DNA of 37,134 nucleotides from a virus. Taxonomy: Duplodnaviria > Heunggongvirae > Uroviricota > Caudoviricetes. This document shows positions 1 through 28,830 of this stretch, in pieces. Position numbers and translations under genes: made by a program. Under the pieces are notes generated by a model. It had not been told where the DNA came from. It did no database searches and saw only the letters and a program-made list of their open reading frames with translations. The stretch lies in the IMG/VR virus record IMGVR_UViG_2703719349_000005, one strand, 5' to 3'. The number at the start of each line of letters is the position of its first letter. Position 1 is the stretch's first letter.

Positions 1-1032
1 TCAAAAACTTGCTATTGATGTTGGTAGTGTTGCCAGCGGATTAAACCGTAATGCAGTTTCCAGGTGATCCGGTGCTAGATGTGCGTAACGCATAGTCATT
101 TTTATGTCGTGATGTCCGAGGATTTTTTGCAAAGCAAGGATATTTCCACCCGACATCATAAAATGCGCCGCAAACGTATGGCGCAGAACGTGTGTCAGTT
201 GACCGCGAGGGAGCACGATAGACGTTTTTTCCATCACGGATAAAAATTGAAAATAGCAGTCTGTGAAGAAATTGAACCCATCGAGCGCCATGATCTCTTC
301 GTAAAGCTCTTTACTGATAGGGATGCTTCTGTTTTTCTTCCCCTTCGTTCTGACAAAGGTAATTCGGTATTTGGTCACCTGTGAGCGGGTAAGGTTTATT
401 GCTTCTCGCCAGCGTGCGCCTGTGCTTAAGCATATCTTGACTACCAGTGCCAGAATTGGGTCCTGACGTTTGCAATCATCCAGCAGTTCAACAATCTGCT
501 CATGGGTAAGCCATGCCATCTCTTTTTCTGCGATGGTGAATTTTCGCATGTTCTCCAGTGGGTTTGGATACGACCATTCGCCCAGGCGGGATAGTTCGCT
601 AAAAACACTACTTAGATAGCTTTGCTCCAGGTTAATGGTGACCGGGCTGGCCCCTTTCTTCCATTTCTCGCTGAAGTAGATCTCACCTGTCAGTCGTTTA
701 TCTCGATAATGGGCAAACATTTTAGATGTGAGATCGGTTGCAAGGGGATTGCCCAGAGCGTCAACCATCAGCAGCAATTTGTCATAGACATGCTGCCCAG
801 CAGTCAGAGATTTACCATGTAGTTTGAACCATAGCTCAACCACGTCTTTCAGGGTTCGACGATCTACTGATTCGCCCAGCCAGGGCTTTGCTTCGGTTTC
901 TTCCATCGTGTGACGCTCAAAAGCCAGTGCTTCGCCTTTGGTGGCGAATTGTTTACGCACACGACGCCCACTACGTCCGGCGGGGTAACATTCGCAAAGC
1001 CATTTTCCTGTGGTGAGTTTTCGTACTGCCAT
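1..1032 (-). CDS. int: Tyrosine integrase, P2/186 family (3' end runs off the window start)
   Basis: Translation has C-terminal tyrosine-recombinase motifs (LRHTFA..., HHDIKMTMRYAHL). Likely start is ATG at 1032 (MAVRKLTTGKW) with GGAGG 6-7 nt upstream on the minus strand; the longer six-frame ORF from 1110 is probably an artefact. No stop before position 1. Confidence 0.88.
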   Translation of the reverse strand: MAVRKLTTGKWLCECYPAGRSGRRVRKQFATKGEALAFERHTMEETEAKPWLGESVDRRTLKDVVELWFKLHGKSLTAGQHVYDKLLLMVDALGNPLATDLTSKMFAHYRDKRLTGEIYFSEKWKKGASPVTINLEQSYLSSVFSELSRLGEWSYPNPLENMRKFTIAEKEMAWLTHEQIVELLDDCKRQDPILALVVKICLSTGARWREAINLTRSQVTKYRITFVRTKGKKNRSIPISKELYEEIMALDGFNFFTDCYFQFLSVMEKTSIVLPRGQLTHVLRHTFAAHFMMSGGNILALQKILGHHDIKMTMRYAHLAPDHLETALRFNPLATLPTSIASF

Positions 1033-1218
1033 AAAAAATGCCCTCCAATAGAGAGCATTTTTACTGTATGTATAACCAGTGTCAATGTATGAAATCTTGC
1101 GACCATACATCTCACTGAAGCCATAATGAAGTTGGCTATTTTTTGCTATGTGAGTATGTGACTTTTGCGGTTAGCCTGCGGCTCATTGTTATATTAGGCG
1201 CAGATATAAAAGCAAAAA

Positions 1219-2891: not shown

Positions 2892-3092
2892 ATGCTGACG
2901 AAAGAACCATCATTTGCATCGCTGCTGGTAAAACAAAGCCCGGCAATGCACTACGGTCACGGCTGGATCATGGGTGAGGATGGTAAACGCTGGCATCCGT
3001 GCCGTTCACAAGATGAATTGCTGGCAGAACTATCTACGAAAAAACGGGGGAACAAATGGCTATTGAAGGCGCTGCGGCGACTGTTCCATTAA
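2892..3092 (+). CDS. Hypothetical early protein (~66 aa)
   Basis: ORF with GAGG 5 nt upstream of ATG at 2892, starting just after the cII stop. No recognisable motifs. Confidence 0.4.
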   Translation: MLTKEPSFASLLVKQSPAMHYGHGWIMGEDGKRWHPCRSQDELLAELSTKKRGNKWLLKALRRLFH

Positions 3093-3397
3093 GCCCCGGT
3101 GAACGCCTGAATGGACTTAATCACATAGCGGAATTAAGGGCGAAAGTTTTTGGCCTGAATATTGAGTCAGAGCTTGAGCGGTTTATTAAAGATATGCGTG
3201 ATCCACGGGATATCAATAACGAACAAAATAAACGAGCACTGGCAGCCATATTCTTTATGGCAAAAATTCCGGCTGAACGTCATAGCATCAGCATCAATGA
3301 GCTGACCACTGACGAAAAGCGGGAGTTGATTAAAGCAATGAATCATTTTCGTGCAGTGGTGAGCTTATTTCCCAGACGGCTAACCATGCCGAATTAA
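3056..3397 (+). CDS. Hypothetical early protein (113 aa)
   Basis: ORF in the early operon; no recognisable motifs. Confidence 0.45.
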   Translation: MAIEGAAATVPLSPGERLNGLNHIAELRAKVFGLNIESELERFIKDMRDPRDINNEQNKRALAAIFFMAKIPAERHSISINELTTDEKRELIKAMNHFRAVVSLFPRRLTMPN

Positions 3398-7975: not shown

Positions 7976-8129
7976 TCACGCGGGTTAACAATTCGTGCTC
8001 TTAATAATACCAGGCATATCAGGCTGATGAACGTAAAAAAACGTTTTACATCAGTAAGATTATTATATACTGTAAATATAAACAGTGGTTATATGTACAG
8101 TATTGCGTATGGTGTTATAGGAGGAAAGA

Positions 8130-8317
8130 TGCAGGACTATTTTTTGGAGTCTTTGAAGCTCCAGCGCATTGATTTTTTTCTTAAGCTTGTAGCGGCTAGT
8201 GAGTGTAGTGATGAAGAGAAGGGGCTAGCTCTGCAGTGGGTTTCTGAATTGACTGATGAGTTGATGGCGAAAATTCGAAGCCATGAATACAGTAGGTCGA
8301 TGGATGTAATCAGTTGA
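8130..8317 (+). CDS. Small hypothetical protein (62 aa)
   Basis: AGGAGG 5 nt before ATG at 8130; a hairpin follows downstream. AT-rich. The longer six-frame ORF from 8027 is probably upstream extension. Confidence 0.45.
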
Positions 8318-8350
8318 GCTTGTTTCGTTAGGACTTGATAAGGGAACCGA

Positions 8351-8369
8351 AAAGGGGCATTAAGCCCCT
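8351..8369. terminator. Bidirectional stem-loop between convergent genes
   Basis: AAGGGGC-attaa-GCCCCTT inverted repeat between the 8130..8317 (+) gene and the 8385..8684 (-) gene. Confidence 0.4.
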
Positions 8370-8384
8370 TTCTCATAAGTTGAT

Positions 8385-8684
8385 TTAGTTGTTACCCAAA
8401 GAGCCGGCCATGGCTGCATATTTAATTTCTTCGCTGGGTATTTCAGGATGTAGTTGAATTTGCCTGATGATATAGCCAGGAACTTCTTCACTCCACAGTT
8501 TCGCCGCGTCCTTACAGACCTTATACGCGAAGTCTCTATTCTCAAAGGCATAGGATTTTCCGTATGCATATTGCTGACAGGCATGAACATAAGCTCCGAA
8601 GTCGCCGTCTTTATCTGGCAAAGCACATCCAGCTAAGGCTATGATGATTGCTACTAACGTAAAGGAGAAAGTTATACGTTTCAT
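8385..8684 (-). CDS. Small lipoprotein (99 aa), unknown function
   Basis: Signal peptide with lipobox (MKRITFSFTLVAIIIALAGC). Confidence 0.6.
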   Translation of the reverse strand: MKRITFSFTLVAIIIALAGCALPDKDGDFGAYVHACQQYAYGKSYAFENRDFAYKVCKDAAKLWSEEVPGYIIRQIQLHPEIPSEEIKYAAMAGSLGNN

Positions 8685-8792
8685 GGTCTCTTTCTAAGCG
8701 TTTAGCATTATTTAACTAAGGGGTATCTGCCGTGATTTGGTAGTCCCTGATATATATTCTCAGGGACTATGCTGAAGTAGCTTTAATTTTGA

Positions 8793-9600
8793 TTATTTAG
8801 AAAGGTACTTATCTCTAAGTTGATTCAGTCTGTCAGCATCGCGTTCTGAAAACTCGGCGTCACCATAGATCGATTTCCCATCTGCGTCTTCAAGGCCAAT
8901 GACTGTGACGGTAAATATAGCATCAGCCGGAACTTTAAGTTTTCCCCAATCAGAGTATCTATTAGGGGCTAATTTCCAGTTGGCTTTCTCACCTGGTTCC
9001 AGACCTCCAGAAATTTTATAGTTGAAGACGTCAGAGAACCAAGGGACGCTTCTTCCTGGGCTGGCAATAACTCCTTTGAAGAATACTCTGGCAACCGCTT
9101 TGTCTGTTCCGTTTTCAACGCTAATATCCAGAATTGGCTGATCATTGCCGTAATCCTCTTTCTGGAAATAAAAACGGGAACGTTCGACCTTGAAGGCTTT
9201 CATTTTTTCCGCAGCCTGTGTTGCAGAGGTTTGTTTGGCTTCCAGTTCTTTTATTTCTTGCAGAGCCTGTTCTTTCTCTCTCTTCTCACGCTCAAGGCGA
9301 ATAGTTTGTGCGTAATTTATAACCTCATCACCAGTTTTACCTTCCAACGCTGACTTAATTTTTGTTTCGTAGACGTCCCCAGAAGACGTTCCAGCCTGCA
9401 TTAGCTCTCTCATGTTGATTTGGCTAAAGGCAACGACTTTAACTGCATCATCAAACTGAGCTTTTTTATCTGCAGGTAAGGACTCTCTTACTTTTTGAAT
9501 GGACTCTTTCATCGACTGATCGCTTGATGCATCGATCTTCGGTTTGTCACAAGCAGTAAGCAGCAGAGCAAAAGCAATTACGCCAGTTAATTTCTTCATA
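8793..9600 (-). CDS. Lipoprotein with central coiled-coil (269 aa), unknown function
   Basis: Likely start is ATG at 9600 (MKKLTGVIAFALLLTACDKP, lipobox LTAC). Central EREKREKEQALQEIKELEAKQ coiled-coil and a beta-rich C-terminal half. The six-frame ORF extends to 9671 but the lipobox start is preferred. Confidence 0.6.
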
Positions 9601-10128
9601 TCCCTATCCCAATCGTAAAAAAACAAGGCTAATCCTAACAGGATTAGCGGGCATGACAAACTCATAGCCATATAGGTGTGCTGTATAAATTAGCGGGATG
9701 AGAAAGCCTGCACAGACCCTCATGTTGAAACTTGATTTTAGCTCAAAAGAGCTGACACTAAATAACTGCGCGGAATAATGCTCCACTTTCGGTTAGCCCT
9801 TGGCCCTTGGCCCTTGCTGGGTAAGGCGTGGGGCCGTTTTCTTCGCCTGATCCTGCTGTATCTGGCCTACAGTAGGTTGTCCTTACGCGACATGCCACAT
9901 GTCAGTAAACGGCAGGTGTAGCAGTATTAGACGCAGCTATTTAGTGTGTATTAAGCTGGCTCATATTTATGACTGGTTTCAAGGTTTGACCGATTTTCAT
10001 GTCATGCATGTCTATGCTGCATGAGTTCGCATGATCGTTTGAGGATCGGTTTGGCTAAGACATGCCAGAACTGGCGGGCTTTTGCTCATGTCATGCAGGT
10101 GCATGAAAACTACTACATAAAGCGGGCA

Positions 10129-10147
10129 GGCGTGGCGGGGATACGAG
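10129..10147. other. Candidate cos (cohesive-end) site
   Basis: GGCGTGGCGGGGATACGAG shares its first 13 nt with the recalled 186 cohesive end (GGCGTGGCGGGGAAAGCAT; P2 GGCGAGGCGGGGAAAGCAC). Lies in a ~670-bp non-coding region at the expected map position between the A-side cargo and Q. Confidence 0.45.
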
Positions 10148-10273
10148 CGCGCGCTTAAGGATAAATTGAAGTTGATTTAATTTTTCGACATGGATAATCT
10201 TAACTACGTATGATTATTGATAAAAAATAAACATAAACAATTGTAGCGGATCTTAAAACTTATTAGGATTAGT

Positions 10274-11335
10274 ATGCTTAAAACAAATAAGGTATTTATT
10301 GACACACAAACGTACGTAAAGGCTGGTCTTCATTTTGAGGGGGTAGCATTTAAAGCTTTCCATGAATTATGTGCGAAAGGTGATTTAGTCTTAATTACAA
10401 CTACAGTTGTAGAGAGAGAAGTAAAAGGTAAAATAGAGGAATCAATAAAGGATGCTCTGCAGGCTATAAACACAGTACAAAGAAAAGCTAGGCTTTTGAA
10501 TAGTATTGATAATGGACCGCTCCATGATTTTTTTCAGCAATTTAACGAACATGAAATTCACGAAGCAGCACAAAAAGTTTTTGATGATTTTTTGAAAGGA
10601 TGTCACGCCAAATTAGCTACAATAGAAGTGATAGATCTTAATGAGGTTTTAGATAAATACTTTGGCAAAGAACCACCATTTGGGCAAAATAAGAAAAAAA
10701 GTGAGTTTCCTGATGCAATCACTTTAGCTGCGGTAGAGCGATTTGTTAATGATGAAGATGTGTATATCATTTCTGAGGATAGTGACTTAAAAAATTATTG
10801 TGATGGTAAAAACAATCTTCATCAAATTGATTCACTTGATAAGTTTCTAGGTGAATACAATACGCATACAAACGAATTAAGTAATAAATTGATGCAGTTT
10901 ATCGAAAGCAAACGTGAAGACATAAGAGCGGACGTAATTGCCCAACTCAATGATGCCGATGGATATAACGTTTCAACTTGGGAAGACGCTGAATTGGATT
11001 CATTTGAAGTCGTCAATATTGATGACTTTGAACCATCAATAATTAAGATTAACAATAATTATTGTCTAGCGACCTTCTCTGTTTCTGTAGATTTTGAAGT
11101 TACTGTTTCTGGTCCAGACTTTAATAATGGGTATTGGGATAGCGAAGATAAAGTAATGATTCCAATGGAGACAACCACACGAACTGAAGTTCAAGAGATT
11201 AGTTTCGATATTGAAATTGAAGTTATGTATGAAATCGAGGATGGTGAATTAACAGATATCGCATTTGATGTGAATATTGATAAGTTATCCCGAGGGATTG
11301 AGTTCTCTATTGAAGAAAATAATTTTGAATATTAA
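10274..11335 (+). CDS. PIN-like nuclease-domain protein with acidic C-terminal domain (353 aa); candidate defence / exclusion cargo
   Basis: N-terminal VFIDTQ (Asp in strand 1), VVEREV, SEFPDAITLAAV and ISEDSDL acidic motifs are consistent with a PIN fold. C-terminal ~180 aa is D/E-rich and beta-rich. Very AT-rich. Confidence 0.5.
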   Translation: MLKTNKVFIDTQTYVKAGLHFEGVAFKAFHELCAKGDLVLITTTVVEREVKGKIEESIKDALQAINTVQRKARLLNSIDNGPLHDFFQQFNEHEIHEAAQKVFDDFLKGCHAKLATIEVIDLNEVLDKYFGKEPPFGQNKKKSEFPDAITLAAVERFVNDEDVYIISEDSDLKNYCDGKNNLHQIDSLDKFLGEYNTHTNELSNKLMQFIESKREDIRADVIAQLNDADGYNVSTWEDAELDSFEVVNIDDFEPSIIKINNNYCLATFSVSVDFEVTVSGPDFNNGYWDSEDKVMIPMETTTRTEVQEISFDIEIEVMYEIEDGELTDIAFDVNIDKLSRGIEFSIEENNFEY

Positions 11336-11372
11336 TTCGTTCATAACGGCATCATTGTGATGCCGTTGGGTT

Positions 11373-12401
11373 TTATAATGTATATATTTCAAAATTTATA
11401 ATTTCATGACCAAGCCATCTGTTTATTTCCATGAATCTTTTTTGAAGTGGTAATAGTTCATTTCTTACGAAGATGCAGCTCGCCTTCTCCACATCACCAA
11501 AACCCCCAACATTATTCGGCAAAATTCCCATCATCTGAGGCGGTACGCGGTGTGCCGCCATCATGTCATCACGGCTGACGTTCTTGATGCTCAGAAATTC
11601 ATCCTTCGCCGCGACTTCTGACAACGGGATGATCTGAAGCCCGTCCTTTTTGCCGTTAGGCGAGTACATAAACAGGTTGCGGAAGTTGCCAGGGCCTTTG
11701 GCGCTTTTCATCGCATTGCGGAGGTTGTTCACATCCTCCTGGTTCTGCGCGGCATCGGTCATGTACATGATGAAGCCTGCATGGCTGCCGTTAATGTAAT
11801 ACTTCCGGCGGAACAGCGTGGCGGACTCGTTGAGCAGGGCTGACGGAATGGCAGAAAGATAACCTGGTAGGCCGTAGATCTCCTGGTTGATGTCAGGTTC
11901 CATCAGATGAAAAATGCTGCCTTTCGTGAACTGATACGGCTGGGTTGTCATACCGTATTGCACAAACCAGTAGGTATCCAGGTCTAACCCGCGTCGGGTG
12001 TATTTTGCCAGAGCAGGCTCAAGGGCGATAACTTCACCGAAGCGGTTCGTGCGTTTCTCCAGGTAGGCGTTACCAAATACCAGATAGTCCTGCACAAAAC
12101 GTGAAAAAGCCTGCTGGCTGAGCAGCGGGTGAGGGATGTAGGTACTGGTCAGAATGTTGCACTTTACTGCAATCGGAGAACTGTGATGCACGGCGGCGCG
12201 GAAGGTGCGCGCCAGTCCGTCAAAGCTGACGGGCGGCTCATACCAACGGTCCATCTGTACGCATTCCACATAGTCCAGCAGTTCACGGCGGTCCAGAACA
12301 GGAACGGGATCACCGAAGCTGAATGCTTCGGCTGAAGTCTGGCTTTTATGCTGGATCTGGTTCGTCGACGCAGCGCGGTTCTTCTTACTCTTTCCCATCA
12401 A
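11373..12401 (-). CDS. Q: Portal protein (gpQ)
   Basis: 342-aa ORF at the P2 Q position, upstream overlap with terminase gene P on the same strand. Confidence 0.88.
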   Translation of the reverse strand: MMGKSKKNRAASTNQIQHKSQTSAEAFSFGDPVPVLDRRELLDYVECVQMDRWYEPPVSFDGLARTFRAAVHHSSPIAVKCNILTSTYIPHPLLSQQAFSRFVQDYLVFGNAYLEKRTNRFGEVIALEPALAKYTRRGLDLDTYWFVQYGMTTQPYQFTKGSIFHLMEPDINQEIYGLPGYLSAIPSALLNESATLFRRKYYINGSHAGFIMYMTDAAQNQEDVNNLRNAMKSAKGPGNFRNLFMYSPNGKKDGLQIIPLSEVAAKDEFLSIKNVSRDDMMAAHRVPPQMMGILPNNVGGFGDVEKASCIFVRNELLPLQKRFMEINRWLGHEIINFEIYTL

Positions 12402-20249: not shown

Positions 20250-22208
20250 ATGATAGTAGGGATTTTTTTAAGGTATTTTAAAACATACAACGGAAATCAT
20301 TACATACCGTTATCTTCTGGAAGTCAGTTTTGTGGAATTGTTGGTAACAATGGAATTGGCAAAAGTTCTGTTCTTGAGGCTTTAGATTCGTTTATTAATA
20401 ACAAACCATGGAATATTAATTCTTCATTTAAAAGAACCTCCAGTGACAGACCTTCTCCACATATTGTTCCTTTATATCTTATAAAGCGAGAGGAATTACA
20501 TGAAGATCATCATGCTAAAGCTGAAATCTTAACGCAATTAGTATTAGAATATAGCAATAGTAATGCTGATGTTACATTGACGCCAACAACACGAAATATA
20601 ATTAATACGTTTTTTGAACATATTAACAAATTAAAAAGAAATTTAAATCTCCAAGATTATTTTTTGATCCCTCTGGGTGTCGAGAAAGATGGTGATGTAA
20701 GTATTTCGATTCTTAATGGGAAGAGTTTATGTCGACTTTTGGAGGTTGATAATCCCGATAATAAAGTTTCGAGCGAGTTGCTTAGTGAGCACTTTGGGTA
20801 TTTATTACATCATGTCCGCCATAAGTATGAATATATATATATTCCAAAGGATATAGACTCTGAATCGTTTACGAAGCTAGAAACAAGTGAAGTACAAAAG
20901 TTGATGGGTGAGTCTTTAGAGCAGATAATTAAAGATAGAATATCTGATAGAACCATAAGTCAAATCAATACAGGGCTTGCCAAATTTCTGGATGGTGTTG
21001 AAGAGGAGCTTGAAGAATATGGTTATAGAACATCTGGCGAGAGACAATCGCGATTAAAAAAGAAAGATGTTTATAATTTGATTATCGAAGCATTCTTCAA
21101 GGTTAGGAAATTAAATAAAAAGCAGAATTCAGGTTGGATTGAAATTAGCTCGCTAAGTTCAGGGGAGAAGCAACGTGCAATAATGGATATTGCATATGGG
21201 TTTCTTACCAATCATCGAGAAAATGGCGATAATCTGATTATTGGAATTGATGAGCCAGAATGTTCTCTTCATATGTCTGCATGTTTTGAACAATTTGAAA
21301 AGCTCTATTCTATTAGTGGTATATGTGAACAATTAATATTTACTTCACATTGGTATGGCTATCTTCCAACCGTCGAAAATGGATGTACCACAACTATCCT
21401 TAAAACAGATTCAACTCATCATTTTGAATTATATGATCTTGCCAGTTATAGAGAAGAAGTCAGGAAGAAAGTAAAAACCTCTTCCCCGGGTATGCCATTT
21501 GATATAAAAATAAAAAGTGTAAATGACCTTATACAATCCATAATATCTAGCTGTTTGGCTGAGAAACCTTACAATTGGTTGATTTGTGAGGGTACTACAG
21601 AAAAAATATATCTTTCGCATTATCTAAAGGACTTGGTAGAAAATAAAAGGCTAAGGATTGTGCCTGTAGGGGGAGCTAGTGAAGTTAAAAAAATATTTAA
21701 GCATTTAGAAGCTTCTTATGAAGAGTTCAAAAAAGACCTCAAAGGAAAAGTGTTCTTACTAACCGATACAGATTCAGAGTTGGTGTCATATGATACCCCA
21801 GTTATGCCGCATGTTGTTTGTAAGCGAATTGTTAGTGTAGGTGATTCAGTGAAGTTGGTTGATATTTCTTCCAATCCAGTTTCTCCTGCAACAGAAATAG
21901 AGGATTGTCTTAATCCTGTATCGTTTATAGAGGCTTTAACATCATTTTCTTCACGTTTTCCTGAGCTTCAGGCATTGCTGCCTAATAGTAATGTTATGAT
22001 AGATGAAAGACATTCATCGTTTGCTGCGATGGATTTGTCACCCAAGAACAAAAAAACGCTTGATGCTTTTTTTGACCGTGAAGGGATTAAGTTTGATTTT
22101 TCAAAGGAATATATTTCAATCTGTGAGCGAAATGAGCGGAAAAGGCCAGAGTGGATTGCCAAAATTGAAAATTTTTTTATAAGTGATAAACCTGTAAAGT
22201 TTAATTGA
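20250..22208 (+). CDS. OLD/GajA-like ABC-type ATPase fused to Toprim-like nuclease domain (652 aa); candidate antiphage cargo
   Basis: Walker A GNNGIGKSS, ABC-signature-like LSSGEKQ, Walker B LIIGIDEPE, H-loop-like TSHW. C-terminal Toprim-like acidic motifs WLICEGTTEK, IVPVGG, FLLTDTDSE. Strongly AT-rich relative to flanking phage genes. Confidence 0.65.
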   Translation: MIVGIFLRYFKTYNGNHYIPLSSGSQFCGIVGNNGIGKSSVLEALDSFINNKPWNINSSFKRTSSDRPSPHIVPLYLIKREELHEDHHAKAEILTQLVLEYSNSNADVTLTPTTRNIINTFFEHINKLKRNLNLQDYFLIPLGVEKDGDVSISILNGKSLCRLLEVDNPDNKVSSELLSEHFGYLLHHVRHKYEYIYIPKDIDSESFTKLETSEVQKLMGESLEQIIKDRISDRTISQINTGLAKFLDGVEEELEEYGYRTSGERQSRLKKKDVYNLIIEAFFKVRKLNKKQNSGWIEISSLSSGEKQRAIMDIAYGFLTNHRENGDNLIIGIDEPECSLHMSACFEQFEKLYSISGICEQLIFTSHWYGYLPTVENGCTTTILKTDSTHHFELYDLASYREEVRKKVKTSSPGMPFDIKIKSVNDLIQSIISSCLAEKPYNWLICEGTTEKIYLSHYLKDLVENKRLRIVPVGGASEVKKIFKHLEASYEEFKKDLKGKVFLLTDTDSELVSYDTPVMPHVVCKRIVSVGDSVKLVDISSNPVSPATEIEDCLNPVSFIEALTSFSSRFPELQALLPNSNVMIDERHSSFAAMDLSPKNKKTLDAFFDREGIKFDFSKEYISICERNERKRPEWIAKIENFFISDKPVKFN

Positions 22209-24241: not shown

Positions 24242-24839
24242 TCTGCTGCCACCGGGTTCAACACCACTGGAGCGCCGACTGGCGCAAACCTGCAGCGGGA
24301 TTTCTGATCTGCAGGTGCCGCTTCGTGACTTGTGGAATCCGGCAACCTGTCCGGTCAGTTTCCTGCCTTATCTCGCCTGGGCGTTCTCTGTGGATCGCTG
24401 GGACGAGGGCTGGACAGAAAGCGTCAAGCGCCAGGTGGTGAAGGATGCTTTTTATATTCATCAGCATAAAGGGACCACCAGTGCCGTGCGGCGGGTGGTG
24501 GAGCCGTTCGGCTTTCTGATCCGCATTATTGAGTGGTGGCAGACCGGAGAGGCACCGGGCACGTTTCGCCTGGATATCGGCGTGCAGGACCAGGGCATCA
24601 CTGAAGATACCTATCTGGAACTTGAGCGACTGATAAGCGATGCCAAACCATGTAGCCGCCACATGATCGGCATGTCCATCAATCTGCAGACCAGCGGCCC
24701 GCATTGGGTAGGAGCCGCCAGCTATCTTGGCGAAGAAATCACGATCTATCCGTATATCAACGAAACGATTATTTCCGGTGGCACCGCGCATGAAGGCGGG
24801 GCGGTCCATGTTATTGACACAATGAGAGTGAATCCATGA
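24234..24839 (+). CDS. I: Baseplate protein (gpI)
   Basis: 201-aa ORF overlapping J and H; P2 order. Confidence 0.8.
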   Translation: MNSLLPPGSTPLERRLAQTCSGISDLQVPLRDLWNPATCPVSFLPYLAWAFSVDRWDEGWTESVKRQVVKDAFYIHQHKGTTSAVRRVVEPFGFLIRIIEWWQTGEAPGTFRLDIGVQDQGITEDTYLELERLISDAKPCSRHMIGMSINLQTSGPHWVGAASYLGEEITIYPYINETIISGGTAHEGGAVHVIDTMRVNP

Positions 24840-26566
24840 GCACAAAATTTTATACCCTGCTGACGGATATTGGTGCGGCGAAACTTGCCAGCGCCGCCGC
24901 GCTCGGTGCGCCGCTAAAAATTACCCATATGGCGGTGGGCGATGGCGGCGGAGTATTGCCAACGCCGGACGCAAAGCAGACGGCACTGGTAAATGAGAAA
25001 CGCCGGGCTGCGCTGAATATGCTTTATATCGACCCGCAGAACAGCAGCCAGATTATTGCTGAACAGGTGATCCCTGAAAACGAGGGCGGTTGGTGGATAC
25101 GTGAAGTGGGCCTGTTTGATGAGTCCGGGGCATTGATTGCCGTGGGCAACTGCCCGGAAAGCTATAAGCCGCAACTGGCTGAAGGCAGCGGGCGCACCCA
25201 GACCGTGCGCATGGTGCTGATTACCAGCAGTACGGACAATATCACCCTGAAAATCGACCCTGCTGTAGTGCTGGCAACCCGTCATTATGTAGATCAACAA
25301 ATAGAAATTCATGAGCAATCGCGCCGCCATCTTTCTGCGTCTTTGACAGAAAAGGGATTTGTACGTCTGTATAGCGGTGTGGAAAGCAATGATGAAACAG
25401 TCGCTGCAACGCCAAAAGCAGTGAAAATAGCGATGGATAATGCCAGCGCCAGACTGGCAAAAGACCGCAATGGTTCTGATATTCCCAATCCGGCACTGTT
25501 TGTTCAGAATCTGGGATTGAAAACGACTGTTGATAAAGCTGCATCAGCGATTCAGCCAGGAGATTATGGAATTGGCCTGGCTTATCTGAAAACCATGGGA
25601 ACCAAATCGCAATTTTTTGCTTATGGTACAGCTGTCGGCTATCCAGAAGTGCCAACACATGGTGCTGGTTTCCAGGCCTGTTACAACGACAATCGACGTG
25701 CACAAATTTATGTCGCTAATGATGGCAAGATGTACTGTCGATTCAGCATGTTATCGAAAATTGCCGATGATGAAACACCGTGGAATCAGGTGTTCACCAG
25801 TGCACATTATCCAGAAGCATCAGTGAGTGTTAAAGGAATGGTGCAACTGGGGAACGATGTAAACAGCGTGTCAGAAAATGTTGCGGCGACATTGAAAGCG
25901 GTAAAAATTGCGATGGACAACGCCAGCGCGAGACTGGCAAAGGACCGCAATGGTGCTGATATTCCTGACCCGACTTTGTTTATTCAGAATCTGGGACTTA
26001 AACCGACGGTTGATAAGGCTGAAAGTGCTCTGCAACAGGGAGCATACGGAATCGGTAGCAATAATAACTACGAAATGGGTGATGTTTCACAGTTTCTTGC
26101 ATATTCAGGTAATGCAGATGAAGTGCCATCGAATGGTGCAGGTTTTCAGGCTGCGTATAACAAGAACAGACGCGCGCAGATTTTCATCACCGGAGCAGGG
26201 GAAATGTATCACCGTTTCAGCGGCTCTGATACGGTTAAAGACAATACAACACTATGGCGTCGGGGTGTTTGTGAAGATGAATTTTCATTTGGCAGCAATT
26301 ATCACCGAATAACTGGCGGTGTGCTGAAGCAGTTTTTTAACAGTTATTTTTCCGGGGCAACGGGTGTGGTGAATAAAGAGTATCAGGTGAATTTTCCGAC
26401 ACCATTTGCCCGTCAGTGCTGGTACGTGATCCCCGTTTTCCGTTCGTCACACGGTGGGAGTGTTGAGGGTGTCGCCATTACAGCTATTACTGCAACTGGC
26501 TTTACTCTGAGCATCACCGGAGATAACGGTGGATGGAATATTGGGTTTATTGCGGAGGGGGTCTGA
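24836..26566 (+). CDS. H: Tail fibre protein (gpH) with internally duplicated module
   Basis: N-terminus (MSTKFYTLLTDIGAAKLASAAALGAPLKITHMAVGDGGG...) is gpH-like; the ATPKAVK motif occurs twice inside a ~115-aa tandem duplicated segment. Confidence 0.85.
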   Translation: MSTKFYTLLTDIGAAKLASAAALGAPLKITHMAVGDGGGVLPTPDAKQTALVNEKRRAALNMLYIDPQNSSQIIAEQVIPENEGGWWIREVGLFDESGALIAVGNCPESYKPQLAEGSGRTQTVRMVLITSSTDNITLKIDPAVVLATRHYVDQQIEIHEQSRRHLSASLTEKGFVRLYSGVESNDETVAATPKAVKIAMDNASARLAKDRNGSDIPNPALFVQNLGLKTTVDKAASAIQPGDYGIGLAYLKTMGTKSQFFAYGTAVGYPEVPTHGAGFQACYNDNRRAQIYVANDGKMYCRFSMLSKIADDETPWNQVFTSAHYPEASVSVKGMVQLGNDVNSVSENVAATLKAVKIAMDNASARLAKDRNGADIPDPTLFIQNLGLKPTVDKAESALQQGAYGIGSNNNYEMGDVSQFLAYSGNADEVPSNGAGFQAAYNKNRRAQIFITGAGEMYHRFSGSDTVKDNTTLWRRGVCEDEFSFGSNYHRITGGVLKQFFNSYFSGATGVVNKEYQVNFPTPFARQCWYVIPVFRSSHGGSVEGVAITAITATGFTLSITGDNGGWNIGFIAEGV

Positions 26567-27000
26567 TGAGTTATTTTTACAGTCCATCAAGAAATGCATT
26601 TTATAACAGTGAACTGAAATCTGATTATTACGATGCTCTCGATGCGTGGCCGGATGACTGTATTGAGGTAAGTGATGCAGTCTATCAGGAGTTTTATCTT
26701 GGTTATCGGGAAGGGTACAAAATGGTTGCAGGCACTGATAACCAGCCATCATGGGAAGAACGTCCACCATTGACCCATGAGGAACAGATGGAACAGGCTG
26801 AAATGATGAAACAGATGCGCATTAATGAGGCTAACAACCTGATTAATGAAAAACAATGGCCATCAAAATTACAGCTTGGCAGGCTGAACGAAATGGAGAC
26901 AACCAGATTTAATGCGATGCTGGATTATCTTGAGTTACTTGAAAATATTAATGTAAGTGATGCCCCGGATATAGTCTGGCCTTTATCACCAGAAGTCTGA
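26566..27000 (+). CDS. G: Tail fibre assembly chaperone (gpG-like)
   Basis: ATG overlaps the H stop (TGATG); position after H. Confidence 0.7.
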   Translation: MSYFYSPSRNAFYNSELKSDYYDALDAWPDDCIEVSDAVYQEFYLGYREGYKMVAGTDNQPSWEERPPLTHEEQMEQAEMMKQMRINEANNLINEKQWPSKLQLGRLNEMETTRFNAMLDYLELLENINVSDAPDIVWPLSPEV

Positions 27001-27132: not shown

Positions 27133-28305
27133 ATGGCTCAGGATTACCACCACGGGGTGCGCGTTGTTGAAGTCAACGAAGGCTCCCGATCCATTACCAC
27201 GGTGAGCACCGCCATCGTGGGCATGGTCTGCACGGGCGATGATGCCGATGCAAAAATGTTTCCTCTTAATAAACCCGTGCTGATCACTGATGTGCTGACT
27301 GCCAGCGGTAAAGCGGGTGAGTCCGGCACGCTGGCCCGTTCGCTGGATGCCATCTCTGACCAGGCAAAACCCGTGACCGTTGTTGTGCGTGTGCCGCAGG
27401 GTGAAACGGAAGAAGAAACCACGACCAATATCATCGGCGCAGTGACTGCTGAAGGTAAAAAAACAGGCATGAAAGCCCTGTTATCTGCCCAGACACAGCT
27501 CGGCGTTAAACCGCGCATTCTCGGCGTACCTGGTCACGATAACAAAGCCGTTGCGACTGAGTTGCTGAGCGTGGCGCAAAGCCTGCGTGGGTTTGCCTAC
27601 CTGTCAGCGTATGGTTGCAAGACGGTGCAGGAAGCAATCACTTACCGTGAAAACTTCAGCCAGCGCGAAGGGATGCTGATCTGGCCTGACTTTACTGGCT
27701 GGGACACGGTGCTGAATGCCGAAGCAACGGCTTATGCCACCGCCCGTGCGCTTGGTCTGCGCGCCAAAATTGACGAGCAGACCGGATGGCACAAAAGCCT
27801 GTCCAACGTGGGCGTGAACGGTGTCACCGGAATTTCTGCTGATGTGTTCTGGGATCTGCAGGACCCGACAACCGATGCAGGTCTGCTGAACCAGAACGAC
27901 GTCACCACGCTTGTGCGTAAAGACGGTTTCCGCTTCTGGGGTTCCCGCAGCCTGAGTGATGACCCGCTCTTTGCCTTCGAAAACTACACCCGCACGGCGC
28001 AGGTGCTGATGGACACGATGGCAGAAGCACACATGTGGGCGGTGGATAAACCGCTTAACCCGTCGCTGGCCCGCGACATTATCGAAGGTATCCGCGCCAA
28101 AATGCGCAGCCTGGTCAGTCAGGGTTATCTCATTGGTGGTGATTGCTGGCTGGATGAGTCGGTGAACGACAAAGACACGCTGAAAGCCGGAAAACTCACC
28201 ATCGACTATGACTACACGCCAGTGCCGCCACTTGAAAATCTGATGCTGCGCCAGCGCATCACCGATCAGTACCTGGTGAATTTCGCCAGCCAGGTCAGCG
28301 CGTAA
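27133..28305 (+). CDS. FI: Tail sheath protein (gpFI)
   Basis: 390-aa translation ([34 protein letters not shown]...) is sheath-like; P2 order. Confidence 0.9.
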
Positions 28306-28314
28306 GGGGACAAC

Positions 28315-28830
28315 ATGGCTTTACCACGCAAATTAAAACATCTGAACCTGTTTAACGACGGGAACAACTGGCAGGGGATCGTTGAGTCGCTGACGCTGCC
28401 GAAATTCACCCGCAAATATGAGAAGTATCGCGGCGGCGGAATGCCGGGTGCAGTGGATGTGGATCTGGGGCTTGATGACAGTGCTCTGGACACAGAATTT
28501 TCCATTGGTGGTACTGAACTGCTGCTGTTTAAACAGATGGGCAAAGCCACGGTGGATGGCATCCAGTTGCGCTTTACCGGCTCTATCCAGCGTGATGATA
28601 CCGGGGAAGTACAGGCCGTGGAGCTTGTGGTGCGTGGACGTCACAAAGAAGTGGACTCCGGCGAGTGGAAGACGGGCGAAAGCAACACCACCAAAGTGAC
28701 CAGTACCAACAGCTACGCGAAGCTGACTATCAATGGTGAGGTGCTCTATGAAGTGGACCTTATCAACATGGTGGAAATTGTGGACGGTGTGGACCTGATG
28801 GAGGCGCACCGCAACGCCCTCGGCCTCTGA
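28315..28830 (+). CDS. FII: Tail tube protein (gpFII)
   Basis: 171-aa ORF immediately after the sheath gene. Confidence 0.9.
   Translation: MALPRKLKHLNLFNDGNNWQGIVESLTLPKFTRKYEKYRGGGMPGAVDVDLGLDDSALDTEFSIGGTELLLFKQMGKATVDGIQLRFTGSIQRDDTGEVQAVELVVRGRHKEVDSGEWKTGESNTTKVTSTNSYAKLTINGEVLYEVDLINMVEIVDGVDLMEAHRNALGL

Follow-up and report, generated by a model that had tools for sequence, protein, structure and literature searches.

Gene H of the prophage studied here encodes a tail fibre that appears to contain the same kind of segment twice. This raises the question of whether the fibre was extended by duplication within the gene or assembled from parts exchanged among phages. The window, by which we mean the whole 37,134-nt stretch of DNA that was analysed, is a complete E. 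coli prophage of the P2/186 type. It runs from an integrase (1–1110, minus strand), a CI-type repressor and a gpA replication gene through to gpD, and is adjoined by the host genes ybjL and ybjM. Its tail genes follow the order J-I-H-G and then sheath FI and tube FII, as expected around a P2 gpH-type fibre, with the ORFs at 27133–28305 and 28315–28830 occupying the positions of the annotated sheath and tube genes in loci L002, L003 and L004. In the ORF list, H lies between a gpI homologue (Tail_P2_I) and the fibre assembly gene (Caudo_TAP), as follows:

24836–26566, + strand: tail fibre gene H, 576 aa
24836–25282, + strand: N-terminal baseplate-attachment (tail-collar) domain of H, residues 1–149 (PF12571, E = 1.2e-64), a widely shared constant part
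26566–27000, + strand: tail fibre assembly chaperone gene G (PF02413, Caudo_TAP, E = 1.1e-25)

The PF12571 domain at residues 1–149 (E = 1.2e-64) likewise places the protein among the P2 gpH-type tail fibres. A Pfam scan of H found, in addition, two stretches of PF03406 and one PF21882 domain, and the phrog_988 profile, which already includes both repeated modules, matched residues 1–529 (E = 3.5e-162). The constancy of the N-terminal part is apparent from its distribution: the first 459 nt of H are matched in about 1,042 of 5,426 E. coli genomes, the whole gene in only 47. Public data (NCBI, UniRef; for example WP_222902566.1) contain identical 576-aa proteins in abundance, and near-identical 576-aa E. 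coli proteins dominated the matches of two large protein searches. Their database names are generic ('phage tail-collar fiber domain-containing protein'), with the internal repeat and the body domain described below unannotated. The preliminary description had remarked that H is shorter than P2 gpH; given that relatives of H range in length from 416 to about 919 aa, this carries no information. The record named 'P2' in our comparison, which is not canonical P2, has a fibre gene of 2,760 nt.

The repeat itself is unambiguous. When residues 151–335 of H were compared with residues 336–576 by BLASTP, a single strong match was returned, pairing residues 176–316 with 336–474 (89 of 142 positions identical, 63%; 4 gap positions; E = 9e-56). 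The two paralogous segments reported earlier are thus upheld, and their similarity reaches well past the short motif to which a self-alignment might have reduced it. The repeat is, however, somewhat longer than the ~115 aa first proposed, at about 140 aligned residues per copy. The copies occupy 25361–25783 and 25841–26257, and the span originally given, 25390–26240, falls within them. The VAAT-KAVKIAMDNASARLAKDRNG motifs begin at residues 189 and 349 (nt 25400 and 25880), a spacing of exactly 480 nt, in frame. At the DNA level, the repeat has a core of 127 nt at 84% identity (25415–25541 against 25895–26021, E = 2.5e-37) and a second piece of 64 nt at 73% identity. The distal part of H was found in 48 of 5,426 complete E. 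coli genomes at 95–99.8% identity (99% or more in 33 of them), with both copies present every time. H therefore carries a 160-residue shaft module twice, in tandem.

Each repeat unit comprises a head of ~75 aa and a β-rich body of ~80 aa, and the second unit is followed by the fibre tip:

25337–25561, + strand: head 1, residues 168–242, with PF03406 at 169–209 and a Mu-S-type junction segment
25562–25798, + strand: body 1, residues 243–321, β-rich and possibly knob-like (local HMM match 241–321)
25817–26041, + strand: head 2, residues 328–402, with the second PF03406 stretch and the junction cassette
26042–26272, + strand: body 2, residues 403–479, β-rich and 48% identical to body 1 (local HMM match 401–479)
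26273–26563, + strand: C-terminal tip, residues 480–576, PF21882 (Gp53-like_C), the likely primary receptor-binding domain

The heads open with the PF03406 motif, which scored 101.6 bits in H against a cutoff of 22 and fell in two stretches, and continue as ...KIAMDNASARLAKDRNG-DIP-P-LF(V/I)QNLGLK. The bodies carry the signature YGIG...SQF-AY...EVP-NGAGFQA-YN-NRRAQI...G-MY-RFS...D--T-W, and in the Pfam scan of H no family covered these ~80 residues. The assignment of the tip is close to threshold: PF21882 scored 26.7 bits against a cutoff of 24.9 with residues 475–576 alone and 23.2 bits, just under the cutoff, with the whole protein. The repeat had been taken for a receptor-binding-region module. 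It does belong to the fibre in question, but it is a module of the shaft, upstream of the Gp53-like_C tip (residues ~480–576), after which the Caudo_TAP chaperone gene follows. By analogy with the knob domains of pyocins, a binding role for the repeated modules is nonetheless possible.

The body is an independent domain family. A profile search with the two modules among 1.84 billion representative proteins gave 939 matches, mostly to the head alone; a handful included the body, and two full modules occurred only in the H family. Bodies outside this head context were found in P0144, P0225, P0260 and P0263, and a direct tandem pair of bodies in P0233. Outside E. coli, a scan of species-representative genomes gave matches to the head only.

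To describe the body fold, we used AF2 to model body 1 and its flanks as a monomer, from a 10-sequence alignment. The model has five β-strands, with a pLDDT of 74 and a pTM of 0.64; residues 151–576 modelled with no alignment reached a pLDDT of 34. Searched by Foldseek, the body model had no match at E below 0.001, and its probable matches were all fibre or receptor-binding proteins. Among PDB entries, the R1 and R2 pyocin fibres came first (probability 0.99–0.82, TM 0.45–0.47), followed by the phi812 baseplate, phage K gp144 and the Pa193 fibre, and matches in BFVD were to the tail fibres of many phages. The comparison with 6CL5 (probability 0.99, E = 0.087, TM 0.47) is a weak match, for which the trimeric protein was modelled as a monomer, and the body sequence profile matched no solved fibre among PDB sequences. 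On the strength of this resemblance, the bodies of H probably form two knob-like bulges on the shaft, ahead of the tip, such that the second module would both lengthen the shaft and add a second knob.

The R-type pyocins of P. aeruginosa (R1/R2; 6CL5, 6CL6, 6CT8), whose fibre is a relative of P2 gpH, offer the closest architectural parallel. Like H, their fibre serves a contractile tail of the P2 type. Two Knob domains lie in tandem, each a five- or six-stranded antiparallel sheet, with a helix-plus-turn linking them (PMC6116203). The knobs are thought to derive from a duplication, and Knob2, together with the C-terminal domain, to bind the cell surface, with saccharide binding proposed (PMC6116203). 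H shares the series of N-terminal baseplate domain, two tandem β domains and C-terminal binding domain, with a chaperone encoded downstream, and its putative second knob may provide a secondary sugar-binding site of the kind proposed for R-type pyocin fibres. Unlike in the pyocins, however, the bodies are parted by a conserved 75-residue head instead of a helix-plus-turn linker, and they are 48% identical, compared with 20% for the pyocin knobs. The tip is Gp53-like_C where the pyocin has a lectin-like foot. Between the two systems, sequence similarity is undetectable and the folds match only weakly (TM 0.47).

How old the repeat is, and whether its two copies are sisters, can be judged separately for heads and bodies. 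In their 127-nt core the two heads share 84% identity, whereas each is 79–80% identical to the single copy of phage 186 and 69–72% to that of Mu. The heads thus resemble 186 (80%) nearly as much as they resemble one another (84%), so that most of the head similarity is what any two fibres of this class have in common. By the Nei-Gojobori method, dS between the copies is 0.95 in the head core and 1.5 in the first half of the PF03406 repeat, and synonymous sites in the bodies are saturated (pS 0.785). Against this, dS between H and its nearest relatives, the X and Y types introduced below, is 0.067 and 0.069, respectively, the latter taken from the H part of the shared region only. On these values, the modules can be said to have diverged more than 10 times earlier than the exchanges with the X and Y types. 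Between body 1 and body 2 identity is 48%, and body 2 is 53% identical to the bodies of three unrelated fibres (P0144, P0225, P0263). In a neighbour-joining tree of bodies, which is poorly resolved (87 columns, 8 lineages, drawn from the top 150 of the 939 matches), body 1 and body 2 did not pair, and they formed an exclusive pair in 39 of 500 bootstraps. The bodies are not, then, demonstrably sisters, and the copies were not found to be mutual closest relatives, as a recent duplication in place would have left them. Of the tandem duplication proposed earlier, what stands is that the segments are homologous, tandem and within the fibre gene; what does not is a simple duplication in place followed by divergence, given head identity (84%) near that to 186 (79–80%), body identity of 48% and the 39 of 500 bootstraps. 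Rather than a recent duplication, the repeat is an old and mosaic structure.

Two relatives locate the exchanges to the base. The X-type fibre (P0270/P0122, E. coli, L005) is 97–100% identical in DNA to the window from 24836 to about 25905, a stretch that runs from the N-terminus through head 1, body 1 and the linker into the start of head 2; beyond about 25905 it is unrelated to H and continues into a P2-H-like, glycine-rich distal part. The Y-type fibre (P0123, L003) has 416 aa, that is 576 minus 160, and belongs to a phage of a different P2 lineage, that matches Escherichia phage Midge at 96.6% over the upstream 6 kb. In its N-terminal part the fibre shares only about 70% identity with the window, rising to 94.9% over 25895–26702, which covers the head 2 core, body 2, the tip and the first part of G. 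Because X-type identity extends to about 25905 and Y-type identity begins at 25895, H reads as an apparent join of an X-type left part and a Y-type right part at the AAT-KAVK motif of head 2:

25895–25905, + strand: mosaic breakpoint at the AAT-KAVK motif of head 2, where X-type identity ends and Y-type identity starts
25476–25485 (partner 25956–25965), + strand: identical 10-nt stretch CTGATATTCC, where the Y type switches from head-1 to head-2 sequence

The second of these features emerged from a map of informative sites in the single Y-type head, which has 0 mismatches to head 1 over 25403–25475 and 0 mismatches to head 2 from 25966 on, for at least 110 nt. Read site by site, the Y-type head is an exact chimera of the two heads in the window. 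By megablast, the head 1 region was found in no other E. coli gene, and as the matches amounted to 48 records only, the sequence of head 1 is confined, within that collection, to this fibre family. On the simplest reading, the Y type would descend from a two-module gene through a 480-nt in-frame deletion between the heads, and the resulting cassette would afterwards have been joined to the N-terminal domain of another phage near 25400. In the Y-type phage, the tip travels together with body 2 and the start of G. All three breakpoints between H and its nearest relatives lie inside the head cassette, and a fourth, very common one lies at nt 459–466 of the gene, at the end of the collar domain. 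A further candidate, a match in H140 that starts at about 25498 and would have placed a breakpoint at the first of the relic crossover sites described below, was rejected on finding an ISEc8 insertion there.

We therefore favour, with a probability of roughly 0.6, a reading of H as a trimeric P2/186-type fibre that carries two old, mosaic modules and has been reshuffled by recombination at the conserved head cassette. The protein would consist, in series, of a baseplate-binding N-terminal domain, two shaft modules whose bodies probably form knobs on the fibre, and a chaperone-dependent tip. The head cassette, conserved in many Mu-, 186- and P2-type fibres at the protein and partly at the DNA level, would act as a patch of shared homology at which fibre genes recombine, in or out of register; an out-of-register exchange would gain or lose a whole module in frame. 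H would accordingly combine the 5′ part of the X type, joined at the AAT-KAVK of head 2, with a body 2–tip–chaperone cassette found in another P2 lineage too, and the 416-aa relative would be the product of a deletion between head 1 and head 2. The junction in the Y type lies 15 nt upstream of a relic crossover site and not at its centre, which points to homology-driven rather than site-specific recombination, and we infer that the recombination was homologous. The longest exact match between the heads is 14 nt, short for RecA-type recombination.

The strongest competitor holds that a one-module ancestor underwent in-place tandem duplication by unequal crossing-over, after which the copies diverged under selection for new binding, with the X and Y types as later derivatives. 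The arrangement of the copies in the same order and in frame with a period of 480 nt is what such an event would produce. The similarity of the head cores to each other (84%) slightly exceeds that to 186 (80%), and a tandem duplication of knobs is the accepted origin of pyocin Knob1 and Knob2 (PMC6116203). The two-module form is also by far the commonest relative. Whereas one or two contigs each are known for the X and Y types, H is present in hundreds of contigs and in 48 complete genomes, so both types may derive from H, and deletion from an H-type gene is the best account of the Y type. The breakpoints would indeed be matched equally well by an old in-place duplication from which X and Y later descended. 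The bodies, however, are only 48% identical, body 2 is nearer to the bodies of unrelated fibres, and an exclusive body pair occurred in only 39 of 500 bootstraps; moreover, the body 2–tip–G cassette moves as a unit between phage lineages, and the saturation of synonymous sites means that any such event predates the present mosaic context. On balance, we consider an origin by duplication in place unlikely, though worth keeping in view.

A different set of possibilities arises from what the heads resemble. In a translated search against deposited phages, both matched one and the same place in Mu S, 186 K and many Mu-like and P2-like fibres, a place annotated in Mu as the G-segment boundary and in 186 as a 'Mu-like inversion crossover site'. 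Residues 167–247 of H align with residues 111–191 of Mu S (gp49) (E = 5e-24; sequences of the solved structures 5YVQ and 8JU3). In Mu, the gixL site TTATCCAAAACCTCGGTTTACAGGAA encodes IQNLGLQE, and the LF(V/I)QNLGL codons of H correspond to it; the homologous sequence occurs twice in the window, in the same frame and in direct orientation:

25500–25525, + strand: degenerate Gin/Cin-type crossover-site relic, copy 1, TTGTTCAGAATCTGGGATTGAAAACG, within the FVQNLGLK codons (14 of 26 positions shared with Mu gixL, 19 of 26 with the 186 site)
25980–26005, + strand: degenerate crossover-site relic, copy 2, TTATTCAGAATCTGGGACTTAAACCG, in direct orientation to copy 1 (14 of 26 shared with Mu gixL)

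At both, the central dinucleotide, at 25512–25513 and 25992–25993, is TG, not TC, and dyad symmetry is poor (4 of 12). Within 3 mismatches, gix had no match anywhere in the window, and a tblastn search with Mu Gin found no Gin-like serine invertase there (best E = 2.8). Both sites lie on the same strand, and no pair of well-conserved inverted 26-bp crossover sites was found. With the sheath gene directly after G, no space is left between them for alternative fibre and chaperone genes, and the minus-strand ORFs at 24.8–27.0 kb in the ORF list are short overlaps of H and G. We therefore excluded an active inversion system, there being no invertase, only degenerate direct sites and no space for alternative ends; the crossover-site-like sequences in the heads would be relics at best. 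In Mu, alternative distal fibre parts join at a single junction, with Gin and with inverted sites flanking the S and U genes. The window, by contrast, carries two junction cassettes in direct order within a single ORF; its sites are degenerate, and it lacks both an invertase and alternative ends.

A more ambitious proposal would have the head as an in-frame recombination linker, derived from an invertase crossover region and conserved for that purpose, with the number of modules tuned to the host surface and a host invertase perhaps still acting on the relic sites. Were this so, P2- and Mu-type fibres could gain, lose and swap knob modules by way of the head, and module number would set the reach of the fibre and its count of sugar-binding sites, matched to the thickness or chemistry of the host surface. 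We regard this as improbable. It is very improbable that the repeat is a fossil or working part of a multi-site invertase system (Gin/Cin/Min/Pin), even one served in trans by a host enzyme. Each head does hold a gix-homologous sequence in the frame used by Mu, the corresponding sequence of 186 was labelled a Mu-like inversion crossover site by its annotators, and the exchange of fibre genes has been attributed in part to fibre-associated invertases (PMC3945230). Yet the tblastn search found no serine invertase anywhere in the window, and the sites, at 14 of 26 positions to gix, with dyad symmetry of 4 of 12 and a different central dinucleotide, include none within 3 mismatches and are direct, not inverted. 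In the ORF list, the opposite strand shows no alternative fibre ends, with the sheath gene right after G, and the Y-type junction falls 15 nt upstream of the site instead of at its centre. Finally, although fibre genes often break assemblies and two contigs stop inside a fibre gene, a repeat created by mis-assembly or sequencing duplication is next to inconceivable with copies just 63% identical in protein and at most 84% in DNA, and with the same gene in 48 complete genomes and hundreds of contigs.

Retaining the reading of H as a mosaic fibre reshuffled at its head cassettes, we see in the repeat an ordinary kind of phage fibre mosaicism and not a new kind of system. The exchange of fibre segments among unrelated phages, and its link to fibre-associated invertases, is long established (Haggard-Ljungquist 1992; Sandmeier 1992, 1994; as cited in PMC3945230). 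As in the mosaic fibres of those studies, which evolve by acquiring and rearranging motifs, H has a constant N-terminus and a replaceable distal part, with breakpoints at motifs common to the fibres of unrelated phages. Also already known are tandem knobs in a P2-type fibre, in the pyocins, and the H protein itself, present in NCBI, UniRef and PHROGs as a member of phrog_988 and of a generic NCBI fibre entry. What this analysis adds is the anatomy of the module, a body domain so far without annotation, the placing of the breakpoints in the head cassette and a deletion derivative found in nature, which together make H a base-resolved case of a P2-type fibre changing its number of shaft modules. 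As the ~80-residue body has no Pfam family, its description should be of use in annotating fibre genes, and the junctions mapped here offer sensible points at which fibre modules of laboratory phages and tailocins could be compared or swapped.

Two smaller observations concern the gene boundaries and a variant of H. The fibre gene in P0121 is a frameshifted H. The start of G is likely at 26566, overlapping the stop codon of H, where the ORF list has 26533; the gene is annotated as 143 aa in L003 and as 144 aa, from the last base of H, in L004.

The two-module distal part of the tail fibre H, which carries both head-body pairs, follows two or more distinct N-terminal alleles (database proteins P0106, P0113 and P0313), with 80% versus 69% identity to the N-terminus of the one-module, Y-type fibre P0123, and is also present in Escherichia albertii. 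In the loci from Intestinirhabdus alba (L009) and Yokenella regensburgei (L010), at 3001-3342, the contig stops within a fibre gene, just past the conserved head. These ends are consistent with the head cassette acting as a repeat that breaks short-read assemblies.

Disrupted copies of H were also found. In E. coli NS-NP030 (NZ_AP024126.1), H is interrupted by ISEc8, an element of the IS66 family, at the equivalent of window position ~25498, close to relic crossover site 1; the insertion splits the fibre gene and leaves an N-terminal piece annotated as a pseudogene. The 491-aa variant P0121 is frameshifted after residue ~421 and reads into an otherwise spurious +1-frame ORF (window 25908-26312, + strand); as this frameshifted H is present in the database, broken fibre copies do circulate. 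Body-domain doubling also occurs in the unrelated fibre-like protein P0233 (503 aa), where two bodies (residues 136-214 and 216-298), 30% identical, lie directly adjacent, without a head between them. This is an independent case.

Downstream of H, the ORF list places the start of the chaperone gene G at 26533 (ORF to 27000). In annotated relatives, G begins at the last base of H in an ATGA overlap (window 26566), a start that yields a chaperone of 143-144 aa. Since the Y-type identity to the window stops at 26702, inside G, the 5' portion of this gene moves with the fibre tip.

Apart from the fibre, the window holds these genes in low-GC DNA:

20250-22208, + strand, OLD-family ATPase-TOPRIM protein of 652 aa (Pfam AAA_15, OLD-like_TOPRIM)
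8793-9671, - strand, DUF6694 protein
10274-11335, + strand, PIN_12-domain protein

The OLD-family gene lies in an island of GC 0.33-0.35, inserted where the genes for tail completion adjoin baseplate gene V. By PADLOC, its product matched AriA (8.5e-22) and Old (2.4e-11), and it is likely anti-phage defence cargo. PADLOC returned no match for the DUF6694 or PIN_12-domain protein; both lie in a second low-GC cargo region (8000-11400, GC 0.36-0.44), which sits between replication gene A and the capsid and packaging genes.
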